In this document: one piece after another, positions 14,955-31,502 of the stretch
Layout of the letters: the number at the start of each line of letters is the position of its first letter
How positions within the stretch are numbered: the first letter of the stretch is position 1
NCBI GenBank assembly: GCA_001029695.1
Contig: CP011211.1
Location: 780,001-812,000 of the forward strand
Source: Candidatus Saccharimonadota bacterium
GTDB lineage: Bacteria > Patescibacteriota > Saccharimonadia > Saccharimonadales > Saccharimonadaceae
Direction of reading: 5' to 3'
DNA: 32,000 nt
Notes under the pieces: generated by a model
What the model was told of the DNA's origin: nothing
Databases searched by the model: none
What the model saw: the letters and a program-made list of their open reading frames with translations, nothing else
Made by a program: the position numbers and the translations under genes

Positions 14955-14963
14955 GGCTATTTT

Positions 14964-17264
14964 ATGAGTGTACGATCAGTAATTACAAAGAGCCTACTGC
15001 TTCTCGGTGGTAGTGCATTATCGGTGCTTGCATACTGTGCGATAACTACTGATGTCGCTCAAGCTCAATCGGTAAGCCAGCGAGAGTGTAATACTGTGAT
15101 CGTTTTCGATAGGTCTGGATCGGTTGGTGGCCCAAATCTTGAAGTGCTGCGAGAGCAGACGCGTCGACTCTTTCAGCCTGGCGGTCTTGACAGTAGCAAG
15201 ATTAATGTAGCATTTTGGTCTTTCTCTGATGAGTACGCAATAGACTGGACTGGAGCGATAAATAAGAACTTTAATGCGCCATTTCACGACTTTGTTTCGT
15301 CAAAGGGTGTAAATTCTAGCTTTAATAACGCTATGAATGCCATGACATCTGTAGGTGGTACGAATTACCAGCAAGGATTTGGCTATCAAGGGAATATAGC
15401 AAACCCTTACACCCAGGCGATTGTAGACAGAGCGGATATAATTACGTTCCTTACGGATGGCGACCCAAACTGGAATGCTGGCGGAGGGTTGGAGGGTGGT
15501 CGGATAGCTGCTCAGAAGCATCGTGACGCGGGTAGGGTAACTATCGGTGGAATTATTGGTTCAAATGCTGATATGCTGCGTAACCTCAACTATGTGTTAA
15601 CTAACGACCTAAATAATGGCAATGATTCTTTCCAAGTTAGTGGTAATTATTCGGATCTTTCTAAGGTGCTAACCAGTCGAATTGAAAAAAAGTGTAAAGA
15701 ACTAAACCCGCCATGCCAGTATGATCCATCAATCCTTGCCGATGACCCAAGCTGTGTGCCTCGTTGCCAGTTCAACCCGAACATCCCAAATAATAGCCCA
15801 CAGTGCTTCCCGCCATGCCCATACAATACAACCATTCCGCAAAATGACCCTCGTTGCGTGAAGCCTCCATATGAGTTAAAACCGTCTACGTCTTCTAGTA
15901 GTTCATCGATGTCGAGCAATGACAGTGTTGGCCTTACGTATACTGTAGATAATAAAACAGCAGTACGTAGTGACCCGACAGGCTGGTCAATTACTCAGGT
16001 GGTTGTCGAGAAGGGTCAGAGTGTTGATCGTCTCAAGAAGATTAATGATAGTAACCCAGATCTTACGTATGCGGATGGATTAAACTGTACGGAGCTACTA
16101 CAGAAAGTCAATCGAGCGGGAACATGCAAGCCAAACATAGCCTCGGGTACAAAAGTTTTCGATCAAAATAAAACAACAACACTAGCTCCTTCTGATGGTA
16201 TTGGTGGCGCGGCGAGCACTTTGGTTATCGATGATGCTTGGCCAGTGGGCACTAAAGTATGCTACTTGCTGTCGATCGACCGCCCTACGGAGAATGACAC
16301 TCCGCGAAATCGCTATGGAAACGCCTCATGTATCACGATCGGCAAGCGTCCGACAGTCCAGGTGTGGGGTGGTGACGTGCGAGTAGGTAGCGGTGCGGCG
16401 AATACGGGTGATCAACCGGGTATCAAGACAGCACTCACGATACGTAATAGTGGTATCTTTGGTAGCTGGTCTGAGTACGGTGCATTTGCGCCGGGCAAGA
16501 TTGTCGGCTTTTCTACAGCATCGGGCTTAGCAAATGAGGGACCAACAGGCTTTCCGTATAGTGGAGGTGATCCATTCGCAACGCGCGCTGCGTGGAGCAA
16601 GTTGACCTTTGCCAACAAGACTGTTAATCCGGATGACGAGTATGGGAATTTTTCATCGACTGGTATCGATTCATCAACTACCGCAAGTAACATCGTAAAG
16701 ACGACTAAAAAAATTGCGGATACCGGGGGTGTGTTCAACGTCTCAAGTCTTCAATCGGGCCTATATGAGAACCCAGCAGGTGATGTTGTGGTTGAGGCTG
16801 GAGATGTACCGGCAGGTAAATCTATAGTCCTGTACGTACCAAAAGGTAAAGTCACAATAGCGGGCGACATAAAATATGCAAATGGACCATTCCGATCTGC
16901 CGCTGAGATTCCTCAATTTATCATTATTGCAAAAAATATCGACATCAACAGCAATGTTGGCCGCGTGGATTCATGGCTTCTTGCGCAATCGAGCGACGAT
17001 GACAGTGGGGTTATCTCAACCTGTGAGACAAAGTCGGGACTGACAATCGATACGTGCAGTAAACAGCTTCGTATTAATGGACCTATCGTAGCGAAGAGAA
17101 TACACCTTCTTCGTACTGCAGGTGGCGACAGCAAGGACGATCAAGGTACGCCAGCAGAGATCATTAACTTTCGGGCTGACGCGCTTCTATGGGCATATGG
17201 GTCGGGTCGTAGTGAACAACGTGTCATGACGACGCACACAACTGAACTTCCGGTGCGATATTAA
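14964..17264 (+). CDS. secreted VWA (MIDAS) domain protein with Cys/Pro repeat stalk and large C-terminal domain; candidate pilus-associated adhesin
   Basis: - A Sec-type signal is present (LLLLGGSALSVLAYCAITTDVAQA).
- The MIDAS set is complete: VFDRSGSV (DxSxS), GGTNY (Thr) and FLTDGDPN (Asp).
- Three 17-aa Cys/Pro repeats and a poly-Ser linker follow.
- A Gly/Thr-rich C-terminal region of about 445 aa matches no family I recognise. Confidence 0.8.
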   Translation: MSVRSVITKSLLLLGGSALSVLAYCAITTDVAQAQSVSQRECNTVIVFDRSGSVGGPNLEVLREQTRRLFQPGGLDSSKINVAFWSFSDEYAIDWTGAINKNFNAPFHDFVSSKGVNSSFNNAMNAMTSVGGTNYQQGFGYQGNIANPYTQAIVDRADIITFLTDGDPNWNAGGGLEGGRIAAQKHRDAGRVTIGGIIGSNADMLRNLNYVLTNDLNNGNDSFQVSGNYSDLSKVLTSRIEKKCKELNPPCQYDPSILADDPSCVPRCQFNPNIPNNSPQCFPPCPYNTTIPQNDPRCVKPPYELKPSTSSSSSSMSSNDSVGLTYTVDNKTAVRSDPTGWSITQVVVEKGQSVDRLKKINDSNPDLTYADGLNCTELLQKVNRAGTCKPNIASGTKVFDQNKTTTLAPSDGIGGAASTLVIDDAWPVGTKVCYLLSIDRPTENDTPRNRYGNASCITIGKRPTVQVWGGDVRVGSGAANTGDQPGIKTALTIRNSGIFGSWSEYGAFAPGKIVGFSTASGLANEGPTGFPYSGGDPFATRAAWSKLTFANKTVNPDDEYGNFSSTGIDSSTTASNIVKTTKKIADTGGVFNVSSLQSGLYENPAGDVVVEAGDVPAGKSIVLYVPKGKVTIAGDIKYANGPFRSAAEIPQFIIIAKNIDINSNVGRVDSWLLAQSSDDDSGVISTCETKSGLTIDTCSKQLRINGPIVAKRIHLLRTAGGDSKDDQGTPAEIINFRADALLWAYGSGRSEQRVMTTHTTELPVRY
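15708..15860 (+). repeat. three tandem 51-nt (17-aa) Cys/Pro-rich repeats inside the VWA protein gene
   Basis: The repeats are PPCQYDPSILADDPSCV, PRCQFNPNIPNNSPQCF and PPCPYNTTIPQNDPRCV. They are conserved at the protein level and diverged at the DNA level. Confidence 0.85.
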
Positions 17265-17302
17265 CAATAAAACACTTTAAATAAGCATAATAGTTATGTA
17301 TA

Positions 17303-18361
17303 ATGAGAAACAATATGGCAATTATAAAAGGCGTGGGTGATTTTTTTGGTCTAGATATAGGGACGACTGCTGTTCGTGCGGTCCAACTATCAAATAATGG
17401 CAACGGACGCTGGACGTTGAAGCACTACGGGTATGCACCGCTCGATGCGAAGACAGCAGAGGCAAGTTCAGTAGAGGCACGACACCGCCTAGGTGAAGTG
17501 ATTATGACTGTCGTAGGACAGAGTGGTATTAAGACGAAGAATGTCGCAGTCAGCCTTGCCGCTAACAAGACTTTTGTAACCGTTGTTGATCTTCCTAAGG
17601 TCTCTGATGCAGAACTAAAAAGCACTATCAAATATCAGATCGATGAATATATTCCTATGTCTATCGATGAAGCAAAGGTTGATTGGTCACTGCTTGGTCA
17701 GTCGCTCCATGATCCTTCAAAGCAAGAGGTGTTGCTAGCAAGTGTGACAGAGCAGTACGCTGAAGAAACACTCGATTTTGTTGAGGGATTAGGATTCGAT
17801 GTTGTTGCGAGTGAGCCTGAATCACTTGCCATGATCCGTTCAGTTCGAGATCCTGCAGCCAAGAATGCTCAGGTGATCGTTGATATCGGGGAATCATCGA
17901 CGAATGTTGCGGTAGTATACGGTGATCAGCCGCGATTAGTTCGTACAATTCCGAATGGACTCTCAACGCTTGTTCGTGCGGCGGTGCAGAACCTCAGTAT
18001 CCAAGATGATCAAGCGCGACAATTTATCTTAAAGTTTGGACTTTCTCGAGACAAGCTAGAGGGCCAAGTTGTTATAGCGCTCGATAGCACTCTTGAAGGT
18101 TTTGTGTCCGAGATCAATAAATCGATTAAGTTCTTCCAAACTCGTTGCCCATCAATACCTGTAGGTGACATTCTCGTATCTGGTTACGCAAGCACTATCC
18201 CAGGTTTACCTGAGTATGTTGGTCAAAAGACAAGTATCCCAACGGCTCTAGCTGATCCGTGGCGACATGTAAATGTACCAGCAGGTGATCAGAAGCTTGC
18301 AGCGATTCGTTCAGAATTTACGACAGCGGTCGGGCTTGCGCAAAGGAGTGGAAAAGCATGA
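17303..18361 (+). CDS. pilM: type IV pilus assembly protein PilM (actin-like ATPase fold)
   Basis: The N-terminus FGLDIGTTAVRAVQL and the overall length fit PilM. It has a 4-nt ATGA overlap with pilN. The start is either 17303 or the ATG at 17315 (MAIIKG). Confidence 0.88.
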   Translation: MRNNMAIIKGVGDFFGLDIGTTAVRAVQLSNNGNGRWTLKHYGYAPLDAKTAEASSVEARHRLGEVIMTVVGQSGIKTKNVAVSLAANKTFVTVVDLPKVSDAELKSTIKYQIDEYIPMSIDEAKVDWSLLGQSLHDPSKQEVLLASVTEQYAEETLDFVEGLGFDVVASEPESLAMIRSVRDPAAKNAQVIVDIGESSTNVAVVYGDQPRLVRTIPNGLSTLVRAAVQNLSIQDDQARQFILKFGLSRDKLEGQVVIALDSTLEGFVSEINKSIKFFQTRCPSIPVGDILVSGYASTIPGLPEYVGQKTSIPTALADPWRHVNVPAGDQKLAAIRSEFTTAVGLAQRSGKA

Positions 18362-19074
18362 TTGAAGTCAATCTTATTCCAGATGTAAAACAGGAGCTGT
18401 TGAAAGCTCGAGTTGTTCGTCGATACGTTATTTCTAGCACTGTTATCGTAGGCATGGCGGCGGTTGGCGTTGTTGTGCTGCTTGGACTTCTATGGATATC
18501 TCTTGGTGTGCGTGGTGCTCTTCTTGATGATTCGATCACTAAAAAGGGGACAGAATACCGCTCGGTGAGTGACCTCGAAAAAACACTGACAATCCAGAAT
18601 CAATTAAGTGCACTATCTGCAATGCACGATAAGAAAAATATCGACTCACGTATATTTCCACTACTAGACGTGATTAATCCGGCAAGTCCAAATAACATCA
18701 GTATCTCGTCAACGAAGATTGATGCTGAAAACAAGACTATAACGATTGGTGGACAGGCATCAAACGGCTATGAGGCTGCTGAAATATTTAAAAAGACTAT
18801 CCTTGGCACGAGAGTTTCTTATATTGATGGTAACGGAGCTTCACAGTCAAAACTACTCACGGATAGTGTCAGTAGTTCTGATATGAGTACTGGTGAAGAT
18901 GCGACAGGAAAGAAGGTTCTTCGCTTTAGCTTCTCATTCGTGTATCCTGCTGAGTTATTTGAACAGTCATCTAGCCAAGCAATTATAGAACGACCAGGAC
19001 GTAAGAACGTAACAGATTCATACCTTCGTGTTCCTCAAAGTCTATTTAGCGACCGAGAAGGAGGCCAACAGTAA
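18358..19074 (+). CDS. pilN: type IV pilus assembly protein PilN-like
   Basis: The N-terminal IEVNLIP corresponds to the PilN INLLP-type motif that binds PilM. It has a single TM (VISSTVIVGMAAVGVVVLLGLLWI) and is translationally coupled on both sides. Confidence 0.8.
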   Translation: MIEVNLIPDVKQELLKARVVRRYVISSTVIVGMAAVGVVVLLGLLWISLGVRGALLDDSITKKGTEYRSVSDLEKTLTIQNQLSALSAMHDKKNIDSRIFPLLDVINPASPNNISISSTKIDAENKTITIGGQASNGYEAAEIFKKTILGTRVSYIDGNGASQSKLLTDSVSSSDMSTGEDATGKKVLRFSFSFVYPAELFEQSSSQAIIERPGRKNVTDSYLRVPQSLFSDREGGQQ

Positions 19075-19736
19075 TGGACAAAATGAGCAACGGACTAAGA
19101 AAGCGACAGCAGATTACTCGAGCCAATCAGACGATGTTCTTGTGGGTCGCAGGTGTGTCGGTGATTATCGGATTTTCTGTAGTGATTGCACTTTTCATTG
19201 GTCAGAAGATTATCTATAGCCAAAAGGTCATTCAAAAGAAAGAGCAGACAGAGAAGCATCTTGTCGCAAACCTCAAAAATATCGATGATCTCAAGGGTAA
19301 GATTCGCGTTCTTGATACCGATGAGGGGCTGAAGTCTACACGCTTGAGTGAAAACGATAGCGCTATTCAATCAATTCTTGATGCACTACCGGCTGATGCA
19401 AATGTGACAGCGCTAGGTTCGTCGCTTGAAAAGAAGATCCTGAATGTTCCTGGAGTTACGGTTGAGTCTATTACTCCGGGCCAGCTTTCAGAAGGTGATT
19501 CTAGTGGCGATGCAACGCCACAGACTCTTCCAGTAAGTTTCTCAGTCTCAGTTGCAAGTAGCAATACCGATGCGCTGCGTGAAGTCTTACTGCGTCTCGA
19601 AAAATCGATTCGTGCTATAAATGTCACTAATCTCTCACTTGAGACGCAAGGGACAAAGCGATTCTTGACCGTAACGGCTGAAGTGTATTATCAATCACCA
19701 GTATCAGTTGAGCAGAAAAAAGAGGTGGTAAAGTAA
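19074..19736 (+). CDS. PilO-like bitopic pilus alignment protein
   Basis: A basic N-terminus is followed by a single TM (MFLWVAGVSVIIGFSVVIALFIG) and a coiled-coil-like segment. It sits after pilN with 1-nt TAATG overlaps on both sides. Confidence 0.6.
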   Translation: MDKMSNGLRKRQQITRANQTMFLWVAGVSVIIGFSVVIALFIGQKIIYSQKVIQKKEQTEKHLVANLKNIDDLKGKIRVLDTDEGLKSTRLSENDSAIQSILDALPADANVTALGSSLEKKILNVPGVTVESITPGQLSEGDSSGDATPQTLPVSFSVSVASSNTDALREVLLRLEKSIRAINVTNLSLETQGTKRFLTVTAEVYYQSPVSVEQKKEVVK

Positions 19737-19972
19737 TGAAAAAACAAGATATTGCTACGCTAGTATTTATTGCTTCACTAAGTGTGTTTGTTGCCTATTT
19801 TATCGCAAATGCTGCATTTGGCGGCTCAAGTCAGGGATCGACGAAAGTTGAAACTGTCAAAGAAATTTCGCCTGATGTTGAAGAACCTGATAAATCGGTT
19901 TTTAATAAAGATGCAATCAATCCAACGGTCGAAGTGATCATTGGTGATCAACAACAAACAACAAGTCAATAA
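19736..19972 (+). CDS. small single-pass membrane protein (78 aa) within the pilus operon
   Basis: The TM is IATLVFIASLSVFVAYFIANAAF, followed by an acidic/polar tail. It is translationally coupled to the PilO-like gene. Confidence 0.5.
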   Translation: MKKQDIATLVFIASLSVFVAYFIANAAFGGSSQGSTKVETVKEISPDVEEPDKSVFNKDAINPTVEVIIGDQQQTTSQ

Positions 19973-19992
19973 GAACGAGAGGTGGGTGACTG

Positions 19993-21756
19993 ATGGCGTT
20001 CTTGACGACAGAGATACAAGATAAGCTAACCGCTCTCTTTATAGATGAGGGGCTTGTTGCGAGTGAAGTGCTCGAAGCTGCTAGAGCAGAGTCTGCATCT
20101 TCGAAAGAGCCATTATTTGCATTGCTGACACAGAAGCATATCATCGACGATGAAATGCTTGCACATGCGATTGCGCAGGTATCAGGTGTGCCGTATGTAA
20201 ACCTGACAAACAGTGTTATTAGTCAGCAGGTGCTTGATCTGCTTCCAGAAGATGTGGCTGAGCGGTTCATGGCCGTGCCACTTGCTGAGATGCAAAACCG
20301 GCTTGCCGTTGCAATGGTTGACGCTAGTAACGTGCAAGCGGTCGACTATCTTGCGAGTCGTATTGATAAGCCACTCAAGGTCTTTATGGCATCCGAAGAG
20401 GGTGTACGACATATTCTCGATCAGTATCGCACCGATCTTTCGACGATTGATGCTGCCGCTGAAGTGTCGCAGCAGGAAGCTGCCGTTGAAGAGAATAATA
20501 ATATCAAGACAATCGTACAAGATTCGCCGATTAGTCGGGCGCTCAGTACAATTTTGGAGTATGCCGTAAAGAGTCGTGCAAGCGATATTCATATCGAACC
20601 ACTCGAGGGTGCGTTGAAGATTCGTTGTCGTGTCGACGGTGTGCTACGTGAAATTATGCAGTTACCAAAGACAATTGAGCCTGCTCTAGTGAGCCGTATA
20701 AAAATTTTATCCAATCTAAAGATCGATGAACACCGGGTGCCTCAGGATGGTCAGTTTGCTGTAAAGATCGCCAACAAAGAAGTGGATCTTCGTATCGCTA
20801 TTAGCCCAGTTGTTTGGGGTGAGCAAGTAGTTATCCGACTACTCGACAAGTCAGGCGCAAGCTTCGACCTTGAAGACATGGGATATGCTGGTCGTGCTCT
20901 TCGGGCAATTCGAAAAGGTGTGAAGCGACCAAATGGTATGGTGCTTACTTCTGGTCCAACTGGATCCGGTAAGTCCACGAGCCTTTATGCGCTTATAAAA
21001 GAAATCAAGGATGATAGCGTGAATATCGTAACGCTAGAAGATCCAGTTGAGTATAAGATGAGTGGAGTGAATCAAATTCAGGTTAATGGAGAGGTTGGTC
21101 TTACATTTGCCAACGGACTTCGCTCAATTCTTCGTCAGGACCCTGATGTCGTGATGGTGGGTGAGATACGTGATGACGAAACTGCAAGTCTTGCGGTGCA
21201 GGCTGCGCTCACGGGGCACCTTGTGTTTAGTACCCTGCACACCAACAGTGCGGCGGGGGTGTTACCTCGACTACTTGATATGCATATCGAACCATTTCTG
21301 ATTGCAAGTACTGTCAACACTATTATTGGTCAGCGTCTCGTCCGACGGGTCTCTCAGAAGCGTGATTCATACCAGTCCTCTCCGCTAGAAACGCAAAATA
21401 TACTTGCGACGGTTGGGCACCTCCTTCCCAAGACGCCAGCAGAGGTAGTTCAGGTATCTCAGGATCTTGGCTATAAAGACTTGCCACTTGCAGGCCAAAA
21501 CGCTTATACTCTAGTCAAGGGTAAAGATACGCCCGCTACCCCAAGGGGTTATAACGGTCGCGCTGGGCTCTATGAAGTGATGGATGTCACCGAAGAGATT
21601 CAGCAGCTTATTGTTACGAGATCTACGACAACAGCAATACAGAAGGTTGCGGTTGCTCAGGGGATGATAACAATGCGACAAGACGGGTATCTAAAAGCAC
21701 TGCAGGGTATTACGACGCTCGAAGAAGTTAATCGCGTTACAGCGGATACACTATAA
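19993..21756 (+). CDS. pilB: type IV pilus extension ATPase PilB (GspE family)
   Basis: A GAGGTGG SD precedes it. It has an N-terminal GspE-N-like domain, Walker A GPTGSGKST and the His box LVFSTLHTNSAAG. No tetracysteine motif is present. Confidence 0.93.
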   Translation: MAFLTTEIQDKLTALFIDEGLVASEVLEAARAESASSKEPLFALLTQKHIIDDEMLAHAIAQVSGVPYVNLTNSVISQQVLDLLPEDVAERFMAVPLAEMQNRLAVAMVDASNVQAVDYLASRIDKPLKVFMASEEGVRHILDQYRTDLSTIDAAAEVSQQEAAVEENNNIKTIVQDSPISRALSTILEYAVKSRASDIHIEPLEGALKIRCRVDGVLREIMQLPKTIEPALVSRIKILSNLKIDEHRVPQDGQFAVKIANKEVDLRIAISPVVWGEQVVIRLLDKSGASFDLEDMGYAGRALRAIRKGVKRPNGMVLTSGPTGSGKSTSLYALIKEIKDDSVNIVTLEDPVEYKMSGVNQIQVNGEVGLTFANGLRSILRQDPDVVMVGEIRDDETASLAVQAALTGHLVFSTLHTNSAAGVLPRLLDMHIEPFLIASTVNTIIGQRLVRRVSQKRDSYQSSPLETQNILATVGHLLPKTPAEVVQVSQDLGYKDLPLAGQNAYTLVKGKDTPATPRGYNGRAGLYEVMDVTEEIQQLIVTRSTTTAIQKVAVAQGMITMRQDGYLKALQGITTLEEVNRVTADTL

Positions 21757-21779
21757 AAGAAAGATAAGGTGGAAATAAC

Positions 21780-22850
21780 ATGGCTAACCAAGAACTAAGA
21801 ATTGAAATCCTTCTCGAAGAAGTGGTACGGCGTCGTGCATCCGATCTGCATCTTCAAGTGAGTCTACCTCCGATGTTACGTATTGATGGTTCTCTCGTGC
21901 CAGTAGCTGGTATGAGCGCACTCGATGAAGCCGCAGTTGAAGCACTTATTTTTGCAATCCTCGACCCTGATCAACAGCAGATTCTGGAAAAAGACAAAGA
22001 ATTTGACTTTAGCTTCGCCTTTGGCGCTCTTGGTCGTTTCCGTGTCAATGCGTATCATGAACGCGGTAATCTCGCAGCGGCACTACGTTTGATCCCAAAT
22101 GAGATCAAGACTATTAAAGAGCTGGGTGTTCCAGCAACGGTTATGAATTTTGCCAACTATCCTCGAGGATTGGTACTTATCACGGGTCCAACTGGCTCTG
22201 GTAAGTCGACGACGCTCGCTTCGCTTATTGATAAGATCAACGAAGAGACCTCGCAGCATATTATCACTATTGAAGATCCAATCGAGTTTACGCACAAGTC
22301 AAAGAAATCTGTTGTTGTACAGCGTGAAGTTCACTATGACACATATAGTTTCTCGGCTGCGCTTCGCTCAAGCCTTCGTCAAGATCCTGACGTTGTATTG
22401 ATCGGTGAGATGCGTGACCTCGAGACGATTAGTGCTGCGATTACAATCGCCGAAACCGGACACCTGGTCCTGGGCTCACTTCATACAAACAGTGCGGCAC
22501 AGTCAATTGACCGTATGATTGATGTATTTCCTCCGCATCAGCAGCCGCAAATTCGCGCGCAACTTGCAAATATCTTGATGGCGATCTGTTCACAGCGACT
22601 AGTACCAGCAATTGGCGGTGGCCGCGTTGTGGCGGCAGAAGTTCTGATAGCAAACCCAGCAGTACGAAATATTATCCGTGAAGGTAAGAGTCATCAGCTT
22701 GATGCGGTAATTCAGACGGGTGCAGATAGTGGCATGCAGACAATGGACCGTACTCTTGTGGGGCTTGTCCAGAGTGGTGCAGTTACGTATGACGATGCGC
22801 GTAGTTTCGCAGTTGATCTAACAGAGTTTGAAAGGTTAATGCGAGGATAG
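21780..22850 (+). CDS. pilT: type IV pilus retraction ATPase PilT
   Basis: At 356 aa it carries Walker A GPTGSGKSTT, the His box GSLHTNSAAQSIDR and the PilT signature AVRNIIREGK. Confidence 0.93.
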   Translation: MANQELRIEILLEEVVRRRASDLHLQVSLPPMLRIDGSLVPVAGMSALDEAAVEALIFAILDPDQQQILEKDKEFDFSFAFGALGRFRVNAYHERGNLAAALRLIPNEIKTIKELGVPATVMNFANYPRGLVLITGPTGSGKSTTLASLIDKINEETSQHIITIEDPIEFTHKSKKSVVVQREVHYDTYSFSAALRSSLRQDPDVVLIGEMRDLETISAAITIAETGHLVLGSLHTNSAAQSIDRMIDVFPPHQQPQIRAQLANILMAICSQRLVPAIGGGRVVAAEVLIANPAVRNIIREGKSHQLDAVIQTGADSGMQTMDRTLVGLVQSGAVTYDDARSFAVDLTEFERLMRG

Positions 22851-22856
22851 CCAGTA

Positions 22857-24065
22857 ATGCGTAAGTTTATCTACGAAGCAAAGGACGGATCAACAGGCAA
22901 GGTAGTAAAGGCTGCTATTTCTGCTGAGACGGAGCGTGCGGCAGCAAAAATCCTCCTAAAGCAAGGGTTCACGCCACTCTCAATAAAAGAGCAGGAGTCG
23001 ACGAGTAGTACGTTTAGTCGTCTACGGAATCGCGTATCGGTAAAAGATAAAGTTGTCTTCACGAGGCAACTATCGACGCTTATCGCAGCGGGACTGCCTC
23101 TTTCGCAGAGTTTGCGAACTGTTGTCGAGCAGACGCCAAACGTGCGGCTCAAATCAGTGCTTCAGGATGTTATTGAGTCAATCGAGGGTGGTCGTTCACT
23201 GCATGATTCATTTGCTAAACATCCGGGTGTTTTTGACAAGCTATTTCTTGCGCTTGTAGCAGTAGGTGAGTCATCGGGTACTCTTGATGAGGCGCTGCAA
23301 AGAGTTGCTGCCCAGCAAGAGAAGGATGCAGCTATCTTGGGCAAAATCCGTGGAGCGATGACGTATCCAGTTATTGTGCTCTTTGTTATCTTTGGAGTGC
23401 TTGGCTTTATGCTTCTAACAGTAGTTCCACAAGTTGAGAAGCTCTATAAAGATCTCGATAAGGAGCTTCCGCTGCTGACACAGTTGATGGTCTCGGCATC
23501 AAACTTCTTGATCAACTTCTGGTGGCTTGTACTGATTGTGATTGCGACGGCGGTGTATTTTGCGGTTCGCTATATCAAAACTCCAGCAGGTATTCGTACG
23601 TATGATAGCTTCAAGCTTAATGTTCCAATCTTTGGTGGAATGTTCCAGAAGCTCTACATGGCGCGCTTTAATCGAACAGGGCAGACGCTCCTTGAGTCAG
23701 GTGTGGCGATGCTCGACATGCTCAAGATTACGAGTGAGGCGGTTAGTAATACGCTGATTAGTGAAAGTATTCTTCGTGCATCTGAAAAGGTCCGAGGAGG
23801 TAAGGCTCTATCGGTAACGCTAAAGTCAGAAGACCATTTCCCTGTACTGGTATCTCAAATGATCAAGATCGGTGAACAATCGGGTCGTATCGACGAAATG
23901 ATGGGTAAAACGGCGACGATCTACGAGGATGAGCTTGATGAGCAAATTCGAACTATTTCAACTGCTATTGAGCCGGTACTGATGGTTGTTCTCGCTATTG
24001 CAGCCGGTGGTATGGTTGCAGCAATCTTGCTGCCAATCTATGGACTCGTAGGCAATATGGGCTAG
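22857..24065 (+). CDS. pilC: type IV pilus platform protein PilC (GspF family)
   Basis: At 402 aa it has two GspF-type repeats (LSTLIAAGLPLSQSL and RTGQTLLESGVAMLDML) and three hydrophobic segments. Confidence 0.92.
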   Translation: MRKFIYEAKDGSTGKVVKAAISAETERAAAKILLKQGFTPLSIKEQESTSSTFSRLRNRVSVKDKVVFTRQLSTLIAAGLPLSQSLRTVVEQTPNVRLKSVLQDVIESIEGGRSLHDSFAKHPGVFDKLFLALVAVGESSGTLDEALQRVAAQQEKDAAILGKIRGAMTYPVIVLFVIFGVLGFMLLTVVPQVEKLYKDLDKELPLLTQLMVSASNFLINFWWLVLIVIATAVYFAVRYIKTPAGIRTYDSFKLNVPIFGGMFQKLYMARFNRTGQTLLESGVAMLDMLKITSEAVSNTLISESILRASEKVRGGKALSVTLKSEDHFPVLVSQMIKIGEQSGRIDEMMGKTATIYEDELDEQIRTISTAIEPVLMVVLAIAAGGMVAAILLPIYGLVGNMG

Positions 24066-24163
24066 GAGTGCAAGCTATAGACATTTGTCTATGATTCGTT
24101 TAGTATAAACATAAGTATCATGTAGATATAATAAAGTGCTCATAGAAAGGGTGGAAAAATTTC

Positions 24164-24643
24164 ATGAACGCCGTATCAAAAAACAAACAATCCGGATTTA
24201 CTATTATCGAGGTTGTACTCGTACTTGCGATCGCAGGGCTTATCTTCTTGATGGTCTTTGTCGCACTGCCAACACTTCAGCGTAATCAGCGAGACACTCA
24301 GCGAAAGCAGGATATGAGTCGTATTACTACCGCGGTAGCGAGCTATACGCAAAATAATAAAGGTGCACTCCCTGATGATCAGGCGAAGTGGACTAACTTT
24401 ATGGAAAAGTACTTAAAGGTTGATGGGGATGCGTTTGCAGATCCAACATTCGGTAGCTACTCTTTGTCGTATAAGGCCCTATCAGATACTGCAACTCCAT
24501 CAACTCCCGTATCTGAGACTGGTATAATTAATGTGTATCCGCAAAGAAAATGTAATGGAGAGAGTCTAGAGACTGGCCAGAAGCGTAATGTGGCTTTTGC
24601 TATGAAACTAGAAGGTGGTGGTGTAGCTTGTCAAAGCTACTAG
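24164..24643 (+). CDS. pilA: type IV pilin, in-cluster major pilin candidate
   Basis: MNAVSKNKQSG|FTIIEVVLVLAIAGLIFLMVF has Gly-1, Phe+1 and Glu+5. A C-terminal Cys pair (RKCNG...VACQSY) is consistent with a disulfide-bonded D-region. AAAGGGTGG SD and TATAAT (24127-24132) lie upstream. Confidence 0.9.
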   Translation: MNAVSKNKQSGFTIIEVVLVLAIAGLIFLMVFVALPTLQRNQRDTQRKQDMSRITTAVASYTQNNKGALPDDQAKWTNFMEKYLKVDGDAFADPTFGSYSLSYKALSDTATPSTPVSETGIINVYPQRKCNGESLETGQKRNVAFAMKLEGGGVACQSY

Positions 24644-24677
24644 ATATAGCTAAGACTACAGTAATTTACTTTTTACT

Positions 24678-24710
24678 AAACAGACCTGAAGAAGTTTCAG
24701 GTCTGTTTTT
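24678..24710 (+). terminator. rho-independent terminator between pilin and pilD
   Basis: AAACAGACCTGAA (24678-24690) pairs with TTCAGGTCTGTTT (24696-24708), followed by TT. Confidence 0.8.
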
Positions 24711-24727
24711 AGCTTAAAGAGTAAGGT

Positions 24728-25627
24728 ATGATAGTGCTTATGGAATTTATACTTATTTGTGTTGCACTTGCGTGGATAGGCACGATCCTTGGAAGTTTTG
24801 GTGCTGCTTCTGTTTGGCGTCTGCGCGCTTATCAGCTAAAGGCTGATAAGAAAGCGGGTGAGAAGATCGATAAAAAGGAGTATGCTCAACTACGTCCATT
24901 AACTGAAGTGAGTACAAAAACTGATCGCTCACGCTGCTTGCACTGTGGCCATAACCTTGCGTGGTTTGACCTGTTACCGATTATTAGCTGGCTGCAGCTT
25001 CGCGGTAAGTGCCGATACTGCCACAAAAAAATAGGTAGCTTTGAATTGTTGATGGAGCTAGGTGTGGCGGCTTTCTTCGTCGTGTCGTTTGTCTACTGGC
25101 CGCACGCACTCTCATCTTGGATTGAGATAGCGCAGTTTCTATTATGGCTTATCGGAGGCTTCGGACTGAGTGTATTGCTGGCGTATGACGCAAAGTGGTT
25201 CTTGCTGCCGAATAAAGTAGTATTCCCGCTTATAGGTATCGCGGCTGCTTCAGCAGTACTGACATTACTTAACTCTAGTGATGTTGTAGTCACTCTCTAT
25301 GGTATAGCTACTTCATGCCTCATCCTTTCTGGGGTCTACTATCTTTTATATGTCGTCTCAAAGGGAGAATGGATTGGGTTTGGGGATATTAAGCTGGGTC
25401 TCGTGCTCGCACTACTTCTTGCAGATTGGCGTTTGGCGTTTTTGACGCTGTTCTTGGCAAATGTGATCGGGTGTCTTGTTGTTATCCCTGGTATGCTTAG
25501 CAAAAAACTTACCCGAAAGTCACATGTACCGTTTGGGCCGATGCTTATCGTTGCCTGGGCTGTCGCTGGATTATTTGGCGAGAGATTGATTGACTGGTAT
25601 ATGCAGGCGGTGCTTCAGTTTATTTAG
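24728..25627 (+). CDS. pilD: prepilin peptidase PilD (A24 aspartyl peptidase/N-methylase)
   Basis: It is a polytopic membrane protein with the cytoplasmic Zn motif CLHCGHNL...CRYCHKKI. Aspartate motifs AYDAKWF and GFGDIKL are present. Confidence 0.92.
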   Translation: MIVLMEFILICVALAWIGTILGSFGAASVWRLRAYQLKADKKAGEKIDKKEYAQLRPLTEVSTKTDRSRCLHCGHNLAWFDLLPIISWLQLRGKCRYCHKKIGSFELLMELGVAAFFVVSFVYWPHALSSWIEIAQFLLWLIGGFGLSVLLAYDAKWFLLPNKVVFPLIGIAAASAVLTLLNSSDVVVTLYGIATSCLILSGVYYLLYVVSKGEWIGFGDIKLGLVLALLLADWRLAFLTLFLANVIGCLVVIPGMLSKKLTRKSHVPFGPMLIVAWAVAGLFGERLIDWYMQAVLQFI

Positions 25628-25638
25628 TAACGTGTTGA

Positions 25639-26427
25639 TTGCGGTTATGGTATAATGAAACGCAAATGGGTGCGCAAAAACAACACGGATTTACCATTAT
25701 CGAAGTACTCCTCTTTATCGCAATTAGCGGAGGTTTACTCGCTGCGCTGCTGGTTGGCGTAAACGGGAGTATAGAGCAGCAGCGCTACCGGGATAGTGTG
25801 ACATCTCTCGCAAGCTTTATGCAGTCTCAGTACGACAAGGCATTAAATACTTCAAACAGTCGCTCGAGCTCATTGAATTGTGACGCAGCGGGTATTGTGT
25901 CTGCAGCAGGTACCCAGCCAGGAACTACTGACTGTTTGATAATAGGACGACTCATTACGGGGGATCAGAATGGTGTATCGCTCCGCAGTACTGACATTAT
26001 CGCATACGTAGTAGATAGCAATGCCTTTGAGGAGAAGAGCGATGTAGACTCGCTTAGGACATCAGGTGTCGTAAAGCTAATGCTTGCTGGCGGTGCGGAT
26101 GCATCGCTTTGGGATGAATACACTCCAGAGTGGGGTGCAAAGAGTATGCCGCTGGATGCTACAGGTGCTGCATTTGGTTCAGGCGGTAAATTTGCGATGG
26201 CGATTATTCGTTCTCCAAAAAATGGCTCTATGATGACGTTTATAGGGAATGGAGCAACAGAAAATATACAAGATGAGCTCATTAGCACCGAAGGGCTGAA
26301 GAATCCATTAACACTATGTGTGGAGCCGGATGGCTTTGCTGCGCCTCAAAAACGCGCTATTGTAATTGCTCCTAATACAATTAGCCCTGCGGGTGTTTCA
26401 ACGAAGGCTGGGGTCGCGGGATGTTAG
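25639..26427 (+). CDS. pilin-like minor pilin 1 (GspH/FimU position)
   Basis: The prepilin motif is MGAQKQHG|FTIIEVLLFIAISGGLLA. The likely true start is the ATG at 25666, preceded by TGGTATAAT (25648-25656). Confidence 0.8.
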   Translation: MRLWYNETQMGAQKQHGFTIIEVLLFIAISGGLLAALLVGVNGSIEQQRYRDSVTSLASFMQSQYDKALNTSNSRSSSLNCDAAGIVSAAGTQPGTTDCLIIGRLITGDQNGVSLRSTDIIAYVVDSNAFEEKSDVDSLRTSGVVKLMLAGGADASLWDEYTPEWGAKSMPLDATGAAFGSGGKFAMAIIRSPKNGSMMTFIGNGATENIQDELISTEGLKNPLTLCVEPDGFAAPQKRAIVIAPNTISPAGVSTKAGVAGC

Positions 26428-27059
26428 TTTCTTTGAAAAGAAACGATAGAGGTGACACTATTGTCGAAGTCCTATTTGCAGTAACGATTTTTGCTATGTT
26501 GGCAGTGGGTGCATTGTCTATTATGAACCAGGGACTTGGTATCGCGCAGCGTGCACTTGAAATAAATCTTGTACGTCAGCAGATTGACGCGCAAACTGAT
26601 GCACTACGGTACCTTAATCAGGCGTATGTGGCTGATTATGGGAAAGAGATTACGTCAGGCTCACCAACCGACCTATGGAATAAGCTTATTGTGAAAAATA
26701 CTGTACGGTCTGCAGTATCGTACGACACTATGGTTACTGGGACTCAGTGTCGTGAGATGAAAAATAACCTATCCGGTGATGTGTCCGCTGATGACACAAA
26801 TGCCTTTGCACTTGATGTGACAAAACTTGATAATCCTGCCGGAGATGCACTGCTTGCGCTGTCGCCTGCAACAACCTACGCAAAGGTTCGCTACGGCGCG
26901 CCTCAGTCGACGGCAGAAGGGATTTCGATCCAGGCAGTAAAGTCAAATGCCGATAATGATTTTTATGATTTTCATATTCGTGCATGTTGGGCGAGTCCAG
27001 GCCAAGCCCAACCTGTACTTATAGGGACGATTGTGAGGTTATATGAACCACGTGGGTAA
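26421..27059 (+). CDS. pilin-like minor pilin 2 (GspI/PilV position), Asp at +1
   Basis: MLVSLKRNDRG|DTIVEVLFAVTIFAMLAVGAL has Glu+5 conserved. It overlaps the upstream gene by 7 nt. Confidence 0.75.
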   Translation: MLVSLKRNDRGDTIVEVLFAVTIFAMLAVGALSIMNQGLGIAQRALEINLVRQQIDAQTDALRYLNQAYVADYGKEITSGSPTDLWNKLIVKNTVRSAVSYDTMVTGTQCREMKNNLSGDVSADDTNAFALDVTKLDNPAGDALLALSPATTYAKVRYGAPQSTAEGISIQAVKSNADNDFYDFHIRACWASPGQAQPVLIGTIVRLYEPRG

Positions 27060-27789
27060 TAGCAAGGGATTTACTTTAGTGGAGCTACTACTTGCGATGT
27101 CGTTCGTGTCACTGCTACTGATGGCGATCGCGCTGACTGTCCTCAAGATGGGCGACATGTACACCCAGGGACTCACGCTGAAAGAAGTGAATCTTGCGGG
27201 AAAGTCGGTGAGTGATGATATTAGCCGTTCGATAGCAGCTGCGACTGAGTTTTCGGTTGACGGTAGTACCGCAACAGGCTTTCAAGAGCAGAAAGTGGGT
27301 GCGACGGTTGTCGGAGGCCGCTTGTGTACTGGTACTGTAACGTATGTATGGAATCTTGGTCGTGAGATTCGCGAGGACAATCTTACGACTCTGGTGAATA
27401 AATATGCCGGTGGAGATACTAGGGTTATACGAATGATCAAAGTAGTTGATGTGGGTGGTGTGTACTGCGGCGTAGACCTGCCGGATATCGAGCCAACAAA
27501 GGCAACTGATATGCTTCCGGAAGGTGATTTGCAGCTTGCTGTACAGAGCTTTGCTATTAAACAAGTTGCTCATAACGACGTATCACAGCAAAGCATGTTC
27601 CAGGTGATTCTTGAGCTTGGGACGAACGACCAGGATGCGCTCCAGTCTATCACAGATACAGAAAGCAGCATCCCAACAATTACAACCTCTTGTAAGCCGC
27701 CCAATGACGAGGGCTCTCGTCAAGAGTACTGTGCGATTAATAAATTTGAGTTCACCGCAAGGGTCGGAAGTAGAGGAGCAGAGCTATAA
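27043..27789 (+). CDS. pilin-like minor pilin 3 (GspJ/PilW position)
   Basis: The motif is MNHVGNSKG|FTLVELLLAMSFVSLLLMAI. It overlaps the upstream gene by 17 nt. Confidence 0.8.
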   Translation: MNHVGNSKGFTLVELLLAMSFVSLLLMAIALTVLKMGDMYTQGLTLKEVNLAGKSVSDDISRSIAAATEFSVDGSTATGFQEQKVGATVVGGRLCTGTVTYVWNLGREIREDNLTTLVNKYAGGDTRVIRMIKVVDVGGVYCGVDLPDIEPTKATDMLPEGDLQLAVQSFAIKQVAHNDVSQQSMFQVILELGTNDQDALQSITDTESSIPTITTSCKPPNDEGSRQEYCAINKFEFTARVGSRGAEL

Positions 27790-29012
27790 TGAAGAGGCAA
27801 CTAACAGGTGAAAGTGAGCGAGGGGCTGTTTCGCTTTTCGTAGTTATTTTTACGGCGCTTATAGTGACAGTCATGACGGTAAGTTTTATCCGTCTTATGA
27901 TTGACGGTCAAAGAAGCGCCTCTGATGCCGATCTTTCACGCAGTGCGCTCGACTCTGCGCAAGCGGGTGTTGAAGATGCTAAGCGTGCACTGGTAAAATA
28001 TCGATCATGTCTTTCTGGGAGCTCTGATCCAACTACGTGTGCTCGTCTTGTGGCGACTCTACCGACTGATAAGTCCTGTCAGGTACTCCAAAATAGTGGA
28101 ATTGTAGGTGCACCTGCAGACAAAGAGGTGATTATTAAGCAGAGTGATGGTGACGAGAAGTTGCAGCAAGCGTACACTTGCGTGAAAGTTGAGATAAATA
28201 GCGACGACTATATTGGAACAATCGACCAGGACAAGTCGCGTATTATACCACTCCGAGGTGTCAGCGAGTTTAATCAGATCAGAATAAAGTGGTTTACGAT
28301 CGACGACTTGGCAAATCCAGAAGATCGAATCGATCTACCTGCGCTCCCGTCTGATCCATCTGCAGGCTTTGAGCTACCAAAGCAGGCGGACTGGCCATCT
28401 AATCAGCCTGCACTTATGCGTGCACAGCTTATTCAGTACGGAGACAACTTCACTCTTGATCAATTCGATAAACCAGAAGGGGGGGATTCAAATTCGAATA
28501 CACTTTTCCTATATCCGGATCAAGTTGGAGCAAAGAGTTATAGCTTCTTGAGTGATGGTCGTCGATCTGCTTCCTCTGGGCTTCTTAGGAGTGTTACTTG
28601 TGATCCAAACTTTAGTAAGGAGACAAGTGCAACCACCGGAAGGCAGTACGCTTGCGAGACGATCATTACGCTACCGAAAGCAATTGGAGCATCTAGTGAA
28701 AAGCAGCGCACTGCCTACCTCAACCTTATGGGACTCTACCGGTCGAGCAATAATTTCAAAATTGAGCTTCTAAATAGTTCAGGTGGTGTTGCGAGTACTC
28801 CGGATGTTGTTAAGTTTGGCGGTGTGCAGGCGGTTGTTGATTCGACTGGTCGTGCGAATGACAAGTTTCGACGAGTTGAGAGTCGTGTTGAACTTGATGC
28901 GAACACCTTCCAGTACCCAACTTCGACAAGCAACACGAGCGCAGGATTCTGTAAGAATTTCTTCGTAACGGATGCTGCTGCGGAATATGTCAAAGGGGAT
29001 GATGATTGCTAG
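27789..29012 (+). CDS. PilX/GspK-like large minor pilin lacking Glu+5
   Basis: The N-terminus is ERG|AVSLFVVIFTALIVTVMTVSFIRLMIDGQRSASD, which is PilX_N-like with no Glu at +5. At 407 aa, it has a C-terminal VVDSTGRANDKFRRVESRVEL motif typical of PilX-like proteins. It has a 1-nt overlap with the upstream gene. Confidence 0.75.
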   Translation: MKRQLTGESERGAVSLFVVIFTALIVTVMTVSFIRLMIDGQRSASDADLSRSALDSAQAGVEDAKRALVKYRSCLSGSSDPTTCARLVATLPTDKSCQVLQNSGIVGAPADKEVIIKQSDGDEKLQQAYTCVKVEINSDDYIGTIDQDKSRIIPLRGVSEFNQIRIKWFTIDDLANPEDRIDLPALPSDPSAGFELPKQADWPSNQPALMRAQLIQYGDNFTLDQFDKPEGGDSNSNTLFLYPDQVGAKSYSFLSDGRRSASSGLLRSVTCDPNFSKETSATTGRQYACETIITLPKAIGASSEKQRTAYLNLMGLYRSSNNFKIELLNSSGGVASTPDVVKFGGVQAVVDSTGRANDKFRRVESRVELDANTFQYPTSTSNTSAGFCKNFFVTDAAAEYVKGDDDC

Positions 29013-29032
29013 ACCAGTAGGAGTTGATGCCT

Positions 29033-29068
29033 AAATAAATTACCGCCATAAGTGGCGGTAATTTATTT
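29033..29068. terminator. bidirectional terminator closing the pilus locus
   Basis: This is a perfect 16-bp stem, AAATAAATTACCGCCA (29033-29048) pairing with TGGCGGTAATTTATTT (29053-29068), around the loop TAAG. A/T runs flank both sides, and it overlaps the stop of the recombinase gene. Confidence 0.85.
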
Positions 29069-29987
29069 ATGCATCCGTATCACTATGAAATTTCTCGTAT
29101 ACTTCACGGAGATGTTCATCGGTTACGTGGGTGTATACCTGAGTGGTGCTAATACTACTATGACCTAACATGCTTTGGACGCTTCGTATGTCGGCACCGT
29201 TCATAAGCAGGTCGGTTGCGTAGCTATGGCGCATCGTATGCGGACTAACGTGTTTAGTGATGCCTGCGAGTTTTGCATAGTGGGTGACGATTCTTTGGAT
29301 GCTCCGCGCGGTGAGGCGTCTATAGTCTCCGGTTGTCGATACAGTGCCGCTATTTCGACTATAGCTAATAAACAGAGGTATGAGGCTGTCATCTCGAGCC
29401 TCTAAGTAGTCGTTTACTCGTTGTGCTGCTGCTTCGCCGATGAAAACTGGACGATCTTTTTGTCCTTTTCCACGTACCATAAACTCTCGTCGAGTGGTAT
29501 TGACGTGATCGCGGTTGAGATTGACGAGTTCGGAGACGCGAAGTCCGCTTGAAAAGAGGAGGTCAATAATTGCGCGGTCTCTTAGTCCTGTTTCGGTTGA
29601 GAGTGGAATCTGCGCGAGCAGTCGCTCTACTTCATCGTAGTGGAGAAAGGTGACTTGTTTGCGACTAACTTTAGGGAGAATGATCTTTTCAGGGCTAAGA
29701 CTTGGTATATCTCGGTTTGATAGGTAAGTGAGAAACCCGCGTAGTGCGATAAGATGGTAGCTCTGTGTGATTGTTGCGAGTTCATCTTCATTGTTATTTT
29801 TATAACGGTTTAACCATAATCGATATTTTCTAATGATCTCTGTTGTTATATTTTCAACTTTTATGTCATCGGTAAATTCAACGAACCGCTCAAGGTAGAG
29901 GCGATAGTTTTCGGCAGTCTTTACAGAGCGGCCACCCTCAACCTCGAGGTGCTCTATATAGTCCATGATAAGTTCTGAGATATACAT
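29067..29987 (-). CDS. xerC: tyrosine recombinase, XerC/XerD family
   Basis: It has an N-terminal core-binding domain. The catalytic motifs are GLRVSEL (Arg), RHSYATDLL (His-x-x-Arg) and LGHSSISTTQVYTHV (His and Tyr). Confidence 0.88.
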   Translation of the reverse strand: MYISELIMDYIEHLEVEGGRSVKTAENYRLYLERFVEFTDDIKVENITTEIIRKYRLWLNRYKNNNEDELATITQSYHLIALRGFLTYLSNRDIPSLSPEKIILPKVSRKQVTFLHYDEVERLLAQIPLSTETGLRDRAIIDLLFSSGLRVSELVNLNRDHVNTTRREFMVRGKGQKDRPVFIGEAAAQRVNDYLEARDDSLIPLFISYSRNSGTVSTTGDYRRLTARSIQRIVTHYAKLAGITKHVSPHTMRHSYATDLLMNGADIRSVQSMLGHSSISTTQVYTHVTDEHLREVYEKFHSDTDA

Positions 29988-30035
29988 CTTCTATAAGCAT
30001 AGCGTAATTTTGTATATCTAGGTAGAATAGGGAGA

Positions 30036-30824
30036 ATGAATATTGTAGAAATAATTGTACTTGGCCTCATACAGGGGTTGACGGAGTTCATACCAATTAG
30101 TAGTTCGGGTCATTTGGTTATTGCGCAAAACTTTTTTTCGGGCTCTGCGGACCATCTCTTTCTCGAATTTATCAATATTGGAACAATGCTTGCTTTGTTT
30201 GTTTACTTCCGCAACCGTATCTGGTCGATTATCGTAGATGTATTTGTAAAACGTAATATACGACTAGCATTGAATATAGTGATTACGGCCGTACCGGCTG
30301 GAATAGTAGGGTTACTTTTAGCTGATTTTATTGGTTCTTCAGCCTTTTTTGGCAGTATGTACGTAGTAGTTGTAACCCTTTTTGTGGTTGGAGTACTTAT
30401 GGTGGTGCTCGAACGGTTGCCGAAGGCTTCGAAGGTGCGTTCGATGGAAGAGCTACCTAAACGACGTGCTTTTGTAATCGGCCTTGCTCAAATGGTTGCG
30501 CTTATACCTGGCGTATCGCGATCCGGCTCAACGATCATCGCGGGACGCCTGGCAGGGTTTAGCGCTGCTGAGGCCGCTGAATACAGCTTTCTTGCGTCCC
30601 TACCGATTATGATGGGAGTAACGCTAAAAGTATTTGTGAGTGATTATGCATATCTTTCCGATCATCTCGGCATGTTGATAGTTGGAAATATCGTTGCGTT
30701 TGCATCTGGGTTGCTTGCAGTGGGATTTTTGATGAAATATCTTTCTCGTCATGGCCTAGCTGTGTTTGGCTGGTATAGGATTGCACTTGCGTTTGTGCTT
30801 GGGCTTATCCTTTTGCTACAATAA
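30036..30824 (+). CDS. uppP: undecaprenyl-diphosphate phosphatase
   Basis: The motifs GLTEFIPISSSGHL and PGVSRSGSTI are present in a polytopic membrane protein. Confidence 0.93.
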   Translation: MNIVEIIVLGLIQGLTEFIPISSSGHLVIAQNFFSGSADHLFLEFINIGTMLALFVYFRNRIWSIIVDVFVKRNIRLALNIVITAVPAGIVGLLLADFIGSSAFFGSMYVVVVTLFVVGVLMVVLERLPKASKVRSMEELPKRRAFVIGLAQMVALIPGVSRSGSTIIAGRLAGFSAAEAAEYSFLASLPIMMGVTLKVFVSDYAYLSDHLGMLIVGNIVAFASGLLAVGFLMKYLSRHGLAVFGWYRIALAFVLGLILLLQ

Positions 30825-31425: not shown

Positions 31426-31502
31426 GCCTCGGTAGCTCAACTGGATAGAGCAGATCCGTCCTAAGGATAAGGTTGCAGGTTCGACTCCTGCCCGGGGTAC
31501 CA
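31426..31502 (+). tRNA. tRNA-Arg (anticodon CCU), CCA encoded
   Basis: Hand-folded cloverleaf:
- acceptor GCCTCGG/CCGGGGT, with two G-U pairs;
- D arm GCTC-AACTGGATA-GAGC;
- anticodon loop GTCCTAA, with CCT at 31460-31462;
- T arm GCAGG-TTCGACT-CCTGC;
- discriminator A, then CCA. Confidence 0.85.

Follow-up and report, generated by a model that had tools for sequence, protein, structure and literature searches.

An intact type IV pilus gene cluster from an uncultured Saccharibacteria bacterium, orthologous to the T4P-1 locus of cultivated relatives

Introduction

Type IV pilus (T4P) loci have been described in two cultivated Saccharibacteria, N. lyticus TM7x (Grossman et al., 2025; PMC12206443) and Southlakia epibionticum ML1 (Wang et al., 2023; PMC10633639). 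Here, a 32,000-nucleotide stretch of DNA from an uncultured Saccharibacteria bacterium (GenBank assembly GCA_001029695.1, contig CP011211.1, positions 780,001 to 812,000 of the forward strand; hereafter the window) was analysed. It contains a real, intact type IV pilus gene cluster of 13 genes (window positions 17303-29012), which is an orthologue of the locus called T4P-1 in the cultivated species.

Locus one of TM7x (TM7x_00415-00475) consists of pilM1, N1 and O1, the unnamed gene 00430, B1, T, C1, A1, D, V1, Z1, W1 and X1 (PMC12206443). Its pilins are essential, it carries the only retraction ATPase (PilT), and it has been linked to twitching; host binding is mediated by a thin pilus made by a second system, T4P-2 (PMC12206443). 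The Southlakia locus T4P1 corresponds to SEML1_0104-0116, and 13/13 of its genes were essential by transposon sequencing (Tn-seq) (PMC10633639). In TM7i, a PilB inhibitor stopped twitching and, given before contact, infection (Xie et al., 2022; PMC9894109). More widely, PilB, T, C, M, N and O are encoded close together in genomes of the candidate phyla radiation (CPR), and PilQ is absent from them, which fits the lack of an outer membrane (Méheust et al., 2019; PMC6744442).

Comparison with described systems

The window locus and TM7x locus one share the gene order, the number of genes (13), the single PilT and the slot for an unnamed small gene between pilO and pilB. In both, the last protein (PilX in TM7x, a putative pilin in the window) lacks a PilD signal and carries an extra beta domain. 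The locus also aligned gene for gene with that of a Nanosynbacter genome, at 31-87% identity. The difference from TM7x is one of lineage: the window comes from an environmental lineage, and the pilins are only 31-39% identical. With Southlakia T4P1, the likeness extends beyond the 13 genes to the flanks (TlyA and YchF upstream; XerC, NDK and tRNA-Arg downstream), and the locus plus flanks matched the order of SEML1_0103-0119. No gene lies between ychF and pilM in Southlakia, whereas the window has a TPR gene and a gene for a 766-aa VWA protein there. Since the locus is orthologous to the published TM7x and Southlakia loci, the finding is correct and already known, and adds one more orthologue.

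The canonical type IVa pili of diderm bacteria (Pseudomonas, Myxococcus) share with the locus the alignment module (PilM and the putative PilN and PilO), the antagonistic ATPases PilB and PilT, PilC, PilD, a pilin with a short leader and the G↓F...E5 signal (the arrow marks the cleavage site), and a putative four-member minor-pilin set. The pili of Saccharibacteria relatives are much thinner than those of diderms, at 3.2 nm (PMC12206443). Unlike the diderm systems, the window locus has no PilP, PilQ secretin, PilY1-type propeller, TsaP or FimV in the window, its genes all lie in one cluster and a Cys-rich motif is lacking in its PilB. The type IV pili of Gram-positive bacteria (Clostridium, Streptococcus sanguinis) likewise have no secretin, use PilM/N/O with PilB/C/D/T and cross only the wall.

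The ComG competence pseudopilus was also considered as the identity of the locus and was rejected: PilT and PilM are present, and the scores for ComGA (260 bits) and ComGB (146 bits) fell far short of what the PilB and PilC/GspF models gave.

Layout and conservation of the locus

A check of open reading frames (ORFs) recovered 13 of them, all on the + strand, at the coordinates of a first-pass annotation made from the sequence alone. The genes are listed below with the evidence on which each assignment was made (HMM, hidden Markov model; TM, transmembrane).

17303-18361, + strand: pilM, actin/FtsA-like cytoplasmic alignment protein (HMM and PDB matches; likely start ATG 17315)
18358-19074, + strand: pilN-like gene, bitopic protein of 238 aa (topology, motif, position)
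19074-19736, + strand: pilO-like gene, bitopic protein of 220 aa (orthologue matches, topology)
19736-19972, + strand: gene for a 78-aa single-TM protein (s78), conserved locus member between pilO and pilB
19993-21756, + strand: pilB, extension ATPase (T2SSE and MshEN)
21780-22850, + strand: pilT, retraction ATPase (TIGR01420, PDB, AVRNIIRE)
22857-24065, + strand: pilC, platform protein (two T2SSF domains)
24164-24643, + strand: pilA, major pilin of 159 aa (N_methyl; leader MNAVSKNKQSG↓FTIIE)
24728-25627, + strand: pilD, prepilin peptidase (A24_N_bact and Peptidase_A24)
25639-26427, + strand: minor pilin 1, GspH/FimU-like, at the position of TM7x pilV1 (alternative start ATG 25666)
26421-27059, + strand: minor pilin 2, GspI/J-like, at the position of TM7x pilZ1 (signal G↓DTIVE)
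27043-27789, + strand: minor pilin 3, at the position of TM7x pilW1 (signal G↓FTLVE)
27789-29012, + strand: putative fourth minor pilin, non-canonical, 407 aa, orthologue of TM7x pilX1 (PilX/GspK-like by position)

The genes are tightly packed. pilM and pilN overlap by 4 nt (ATGA), and 1-nt overlaps (TAATG) occur at three junctions (pilN/pilO, pilO/78-aa gene and minor pilins 3/4). Minor pilins 1 and 2 share 7 nt, and minor pilins 2 and 3 share 17 nt. The remaining junctions have gaps of 6-98 nt, and ribosome-binding sequences of the GGAGG/GGTGG type precede most starts. The overlaps and the tight coupling were thus exactly as first described. The start of the locus was revised: the ORF beginning at 17303 is present, but pilM probably starts at 17315 (see below).

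The identities that had been proposed for the genes were borne out by HMM, PDB and motif checks of the window proteins. Matches were obtained to the PilM, T2SSE, T2SSF, peptidase A24 and N_methyl families that the first-pass annotation had named for checking; the PilN and PilO families it had also named gave no match with the window proteins and weak matches with some orthologues only. Six products are secure by HMM (PilM, PilB, PilT, PilC, PilA and PilD). The assignments of PilN, PilO and the fourth minor pilin are weak, and are suggested by slight similarity, topology, motifs and position.

Relatives were taken from a collection of species-representative genomes, and 80 related loci were compared. 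The PilC relatives were almost all from Saccharibacteria. The best were soil and groundwater metagenome-assembled genomes (MAGs) at 72-74% identity, and a complete Nanosynbacter genome gave 63%. Among public genomes, a nearly identical relative (98%; locus tag I8H84_03910, on contigs of up to 778 kb) was also found. As the closest PilC relatives are Saccharibacteria MAGs, the attribution of the window to this group stands. Wherever the contig was long enough, the same order recurred with both flanks conserved: (ychF), (TPR), VWA, pilM-N-O, small gene, B-T-C-A-D, four minor pilins, xerC/D, (bacA) and ndk. YchF lies upstream, and XerC/D, NDK and tRNA-Arg lie downstream; the window also has a tRNA-Arg after ndk. 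ORFs were intact and within narrow length ranges in the 80 loci. Decay of core genes in close relatives, which would have spoken against a functional pilus, was therefore not seen. Synonymous sites were saturated while the rate of nonsynonymous substitution (dN) was low (0.05 for PilT, 0.27-0.36 for the 78-aa gene), so that the ratio of dN to the synonymous rate (dS) could not be quantified.

None of the window ORFs scanned matched a secretin, PilP, TsaP or FimV family, in agreement with the components first reported as missing. For the whole genome, the absence of a secretin would follow from what is published for CPR bacteria (PMC6744442), the scan made here covering the window.

Core machine

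PilM matched PF11104 (E=3.5e-40) and TIGR01175 (163 bits, cutoff 133). It also matched the PilM structures 5eox, 3jc8 and 2ych in the PDB, with E-values from 5e-22 to 1e-15. PilB has a T2SSE domain (E=9e-124) and an N-terminal MshEN domain. PilT scored 476 bits with TIGR01420 (cutoff 319) and was much closer to PilT structures in the PDB (E ~1e-110) than to PilB structures (E ~1e-35); its AVRNIIRE is a motif of the AIRNLIRE type. Walker A, Walker B and His boxes were found in both ATPases, and the Asp box was also found in PilB. Both motors claimed for the locus, PilB (T2SSE) and PilT (TIGR01420 over its cutoff), are thus present.

PilC contains two T2SSF domains (E=6e-56) and three hydrophobic segments. 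PilD matched A24_N_bact (E=8e-21) and Peptidase_A24, and its motifs are intact: two CxxC pairs, D154 in DxxxxxLP and D220 in GFGD (GxGD), so both catalytic Asp residues are present.

Major and minor pilins

PilA matched N_methyl with 28.6 bits (cutoff 21.2). It has a short leader, Gly-1, Phe+1 and Glu+5, and the sequence G↓F(T/S)IIE was found in 75/75 orthologues. The first three minor pilins scored just under the same cutoff (17-20 bits). Minor pilin 1 (19.7 bits; GspH, E=9e-4) carries the signal G↓FTIIE, and G↓FT..E was kept in 62/62 orthologues with a usable ORF. Minor pilin 2 scored 19.9 bits and matched GspJ and GspI at E ~1e-4. It has Asp at +1 (G↓DT..E) in 66/66 orthologues in place of the usual Phe, a residue that is strictly conserved and unusual for a prepilin. 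Minor pilin 3 scored 17.4 bits with weak pseudopilin matches, and its motif was kept in 63/65 orthologues. PilA and these three minor pilins have conserved signal peptides of class III.

The N-terminus of the 407-aa protein reads ERG↓AVSLF and lacks Glu5. Its confident AlphaFold2 (AF2) model (mean predicted local distance difference test score 82, predicted template modelling score 0.78) consists of a 64-residue N-terminal helix and a beta domain, and its low-probability fold matches were to jelly-roll-like capsid and adhesin folds. Pfam searches with 49 orthologues gave no significant family, PilX_N being reached at E=0.34. Some orthologues have been named PilX by the Joint Genome Institute (JGI), and the Southlakia orthologue was classed as GspK-like plus galactose-binding-like (PMC10633639). 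The predicted lollipop shape and the position of the gene suggest that this fourth protein is pilin-like.

An orphan type IV pilin gene (8518-9150, + strand, 210 aa, MSKQRAVLGVSKG↓FTIVE) was also noticed in front of rpsF-ssb, at a distance of 8 kb upstream from the locus. Its product matched N_methyl (25.3 bits) and was GspG-like (E=1.4e-11). It is like TM7x pilK (208 aa) in size and in its solitary position.

PilN, PilO and the 78-aa membrane protein

The PilN-like protein has a single TM segment (residues 22-57). Its N-terminus, M-I-E-x-N-L-x-P, is invariant in orthologues and resembles MNPPINFLP of E. coli HofN. PF05137 (PilN) matched 5/43 orthologues weakly (best E=5.8e-4) and did not match the window protein. 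The TM7x orthologue has been named pilN1 (PMC12206443), and the conserved N-terminus of PilN is bound by PilM (PMC5805733). No paper on the PilN 'INLLP' motif was found in the literature search. The PilO-like protein also has one TM segment (residues 19-49). PF10741 (T2SSM_b, GspM/PilO-related) matched 20/41 of its orthologues (best E=3.5e-5) and not the window protein, and the Southlakia orthologue SEML1_0106 was placed by structure in the EpsM/PilO-like domain class (3jc9 chain O) (PMC10633639). When the PilN and PilO profiles were compared with each other by hhalign, the probability was only 10.9%.

The 78-aa gene was found between pilO and pilB in 73/73 loci that cover the position, with products of 72-94 aa; an overlap with pilO of 4 or 1 nt is usual. 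Its protein has an N-terminal TM helix followed by the conserved motif PD..FN..AINPTVEV.IG. An exhaustive search with the family profile returned 672 representative proteins at E<=1e-3, all short and none annotated, and a Pfam scan of 50 members gave nothing. The dN range given above was accompanied by dS >1. The Southlakia orthologue SEML1_0107 (76 aa) is labelled "hypothetical protein" and was essential by Tn-seq, though it offers only 5-6 insertion sites (PMC10633639). In TM7x, the slot is taken by 00430, which is unnamed in the pil gene table, and the supplements of that study make no mention of genes 00430 or 00410 (PMC12206443). By its conservation, the 78-aa gene is judged a real member of the locus. 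PilP binds the PilN-PilO pair (PMC5805733), and for this reason a PilP-like role can be guessed at. Tentatively, and with more doubt than conviction, we suggest that, in CPR bacteria that have no outer membrane, the 78-aa protein might be a structural subunit of the basal body of the pilus, essential and so far undescribed: a minimal stand-in for PilP that would bind PilN-PilO through a short extracellular motif, PD..FN..AINPTVEV.IG.

Promoters, starts and terminator

Three regulatory features were predicted.

17276-17304, + strand: pilM promoter (-35-like TTTAAA, 17-nt spacer, -10 TATAAT at 17299-17304)
24078-24106, + strand: pilA promoter-like site (TAGACA-17-TAGTAT), followed by a conserved leader and Shine-Dalgarno sequence (GTTCATAGAAAGGTGG)
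24679-24715, + strand: terminator-like hairpin and T-run after pilA (folding)

The pilM promoter was the best promoter-like site in 13000-30200 (10/12 matches). An exact TATAAT was found 5' of pilM in 61/67 orthologous loci, usually as TGTATAAT. It lies 10 nt ahead of the pilM ATG in 58/67, and TG precedes the box in 47/67. The ATG at 17303 chosen by the ORF finder falls within the conserved -10 box (17299-17304), and the true start of pilM is therefore likely to be ATG 17315 (MAIIKG...). From the TATAAT-N10-ATG geometry, a near-leaderless pilM mRNA with a leader of a few nt is predicted.

Across orthologous loci, pilA kept its leader and its TAGACA and TA.TATAA boxes, and the ribosome-binding site is strong. 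The hairpin 3' of pilA has a fold energy of -26.7 kcal/mol (z = -3.8). A hairpin and T-run, of a sequence that differs between loci, followed pilA in 56/71 loci. The consensus terminator scan did not list this hairpin, which was found by folding. From these sites, one transcription unit appears to run from the conserved pilM promoter through pilMNO, the 78-aa gene and pilBTC; pilA appears to have its own promoter, with a leaky terminator between it and pilD plus the minor pilins. A separate pilA promoter and hairpin fit strong expression of the pilin, with part of the transcription reading through into pilD and the minor pilin genes.

VWA neighbour and flanking genes

The first-pass annotation had grouped with the pilus the gene that lies upstream of pilM.

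14964-17264, + strand: secreted VWA-domain protein of 766 aa, conserved neighbour upstream of pilM

This protein matched the VWA family with 22.6 bits, just under the cutoff. It has a Sec-type signal, the metal-site motif DRSGS and no pilin N-terminus. The AF2 model of its VWA domain (residues 40-250) gave fold matches (E ~1e-7 to 1e-6) to the I domains of integrins and to the pilus adhesin SpaC. A VWA homologue lies directly upstream of pilM, 36-90 nt away, in 54/60 loci, and as a conserved neighbour the gene was rightly noticed. However, a conserved promoter divides it from pilM, which places it in what is probably a separate transcription unit, and in Southlakia the gene is absent from this position (PMC10633639). 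The grouping is for these two reasons unproven, and a functional link of the VWA protein with the pilus is an unsupported possibility.

In S. sanguinis, adhesion is reported to rely on a VWA module (PMC8179133). That module is fused to a pilin, whereas the window protein begins with a signal peptide of the ordinary kind and lacks a pilin N-terminus. The VWA protein was also considered as a PilY1 analogue, and this was rejected: only the VWA domain was matched, and no PilY1 was among the 50 fold matches listed. The gene precedes pilM, from which a promoter separates it, whereas a PilY1-type gene lies inside a minor-pilin operon. The extreme C-terminus of the VWA protein is conserved (T..T.ELPPRF/Y, with E761 invariant and L762 and P763 nearly so), and a Cys/Pro-rich linker at about residues 250-290 was modelled with low confidence.

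A membrane-anchored TPR protein of 199 aa is encoded at 14355-14954 (+ strand), 9 nt before the VWA gene. A homologue was recognisable in only 13/80 loci, and it is therefore not a core member of the locus. The gene at 29067-29987 (- strand), just downstream of the pilus genes, encodes an XerC/D-like tyrosine recombinase, which scored 255 bits with TIGR02225, under the cutoff. Its synteny in 61 loci, at 71-87% identity, marks it as a housekeeping gene and not as evidence of a mobile element. The 288-aa ORF at 489-1355 (+ strand) matched no Pfam family and had weak sub-threshold NCBIfam matches. The sole RNA gene found in the window was tRNA-Arg(CCT) at 31426-31502. GC skew was above 0 in every 2-kb step of the window (1-32000), and the + strand carries nearly all of the long genes; both are consistent with a single replication arm.

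Function of the pilus

The product of the locus is very probably a complete type IVa-like pilus machine, retractile and of the outer-membrane-less type; the locus itself is orthologous to T4P-1. Gene identities and synteny were observed; the transcription units given above, the assembly steps that follow and the role of the pilus are what we infer. PilD would cut PilA and three of the minor pilins behind the Gly that ends their short leaders. The fibre would be primed by the four minor pilins, with the Glu5-less 407-aa protein at its tip. A PilB hexamer would energise PilC, adding PilA subunits from the membrane, and the fibre would be retracted when PilT took the place of PilB. Cytoplasmic PilM would grip the conserved N-terminus of PilN. 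PilN and PilO, probably with the 78-aa protein, would form the membrane alignment complex. No secretin would be needed, because the fibre would cross only the wall. As in relatives, the pilus probably serves a twitching motility that epibiotic growth requires.

Several points weigh against this view. For this organism, both the pilus and the transcription start sites of the locus are predictions. The origin of the 3.2-nm thick pilus of TM7x from T4P-1 is a hypothesis stated as such (PMC12206443). The 238-aa PilN, 220-aa PilO-like, 78-aa and 407-aa proteins of the window had no significant family match in Pfam or NCBIfam. PDB profile searches with the PilN and PilO orthologue alignments gave nothing relevant, hhalign comparisons of the PilN, PilO and 78-aa profiles yielded nothing significant against HofN, HofO and HofP of E. 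coli, and the PDB fold search with the 407-aa model gave no match at E<=0.001. PilB scored 527 bits with TIGR02538, under the equivalog cutoff of 676, and PilC was likewise under its NCBIfam equivalog cutoff. Finally, PilB has one Cys in the window, and its C-terminal part was Cys-free in 72/72 full-length orthologues. A tetracysteine zinc motif is typical of PilB/GspE ATPases, and the PilB of the Saccharibacteria lineage, judged from these alignments, lacks it.

Other functions were weighed. The pilus could be the primary host-attachment organelle, tethering and pulling the epibiont, with the adjacent VWA protein as adhesin. An importance of the pilus in host association had been put forward in the first-pass annotation. 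In TM7i, PilB inhibition before contact blocks infection (PMC9894109). Saccharibacteria outside clade G1 are moreover reported with only a T4P-1 locus, and T4P-1 would therefore have to cover adhesion there (PMC12206443). The VWA gene, directly upstream in 54/60 loci and with a domain resembling integrin I domains and the pilus-tip adhesin SpaC, would suit the second part of the proposal. Nevertheless, host binding in TM7x maps to the separate T4P-2 (PMC12206443). The VWA protein has a Sec-type and not a pilin signal, a promoter stands between its gene and pilM, the gene is missing at this position in Southlakia, and its C-terminal part gave no PilY1-like match. We therefore regard attachment as the primary function as rather doubtful. 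A pilus mainly for DNA uptake (competence), feeding ComEC and supplying nucleotides to an organism unable to make them, seems unlikely to us. A partnership of CPR type IV pili with the Com system in acquiring DNA and nucleotides has been proposed (PMC6744442, PMC10633639), Saccharibacteria are naturally competent (PMC10633639) and a retraction ATPase is present. But Southlakia without comEC is viable while its T4P genes are essential (PMC10633639), and competence therefore does not explain the essentiality; the ComGA and ComGB scores also stand far under those of the PilB and PilC/GspF models. DNA uptake and twitching are compatible roles and not mutually exclusive.

It is very improbable that the locus makes a type II secretion-like pseudopilus that exports proteins, with no surface pilus. 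The GspE, GspF, GspH, GspI and GspJ models were second-best matches, and the four minor pilins resemble a GspH-I-J-K set by their order; yet the locus has a bona fide PilT, PilM rather than GspL, and no GspC or GspD, and surface filaments and twitching have been seen in relatives. A retractile type IVa-like pilus of the T4P-1 type is thus the function that we retain.

Significance

With the window, an environmental lineage contributes one further intact orthologue, and no new question arises from it. Its additions are modest: the unnamed 78-aa family, the geometry of the pilM promoter, the pilA promoter and terminator, and the frequent VWA neighbour. The T4P-1 locus type to which it belongs is essential in both genetically tractable species, and type IV pili have a central part in the motility, host finding and epibiotic survival of Saccharibacteria and of other CPR bacteria.

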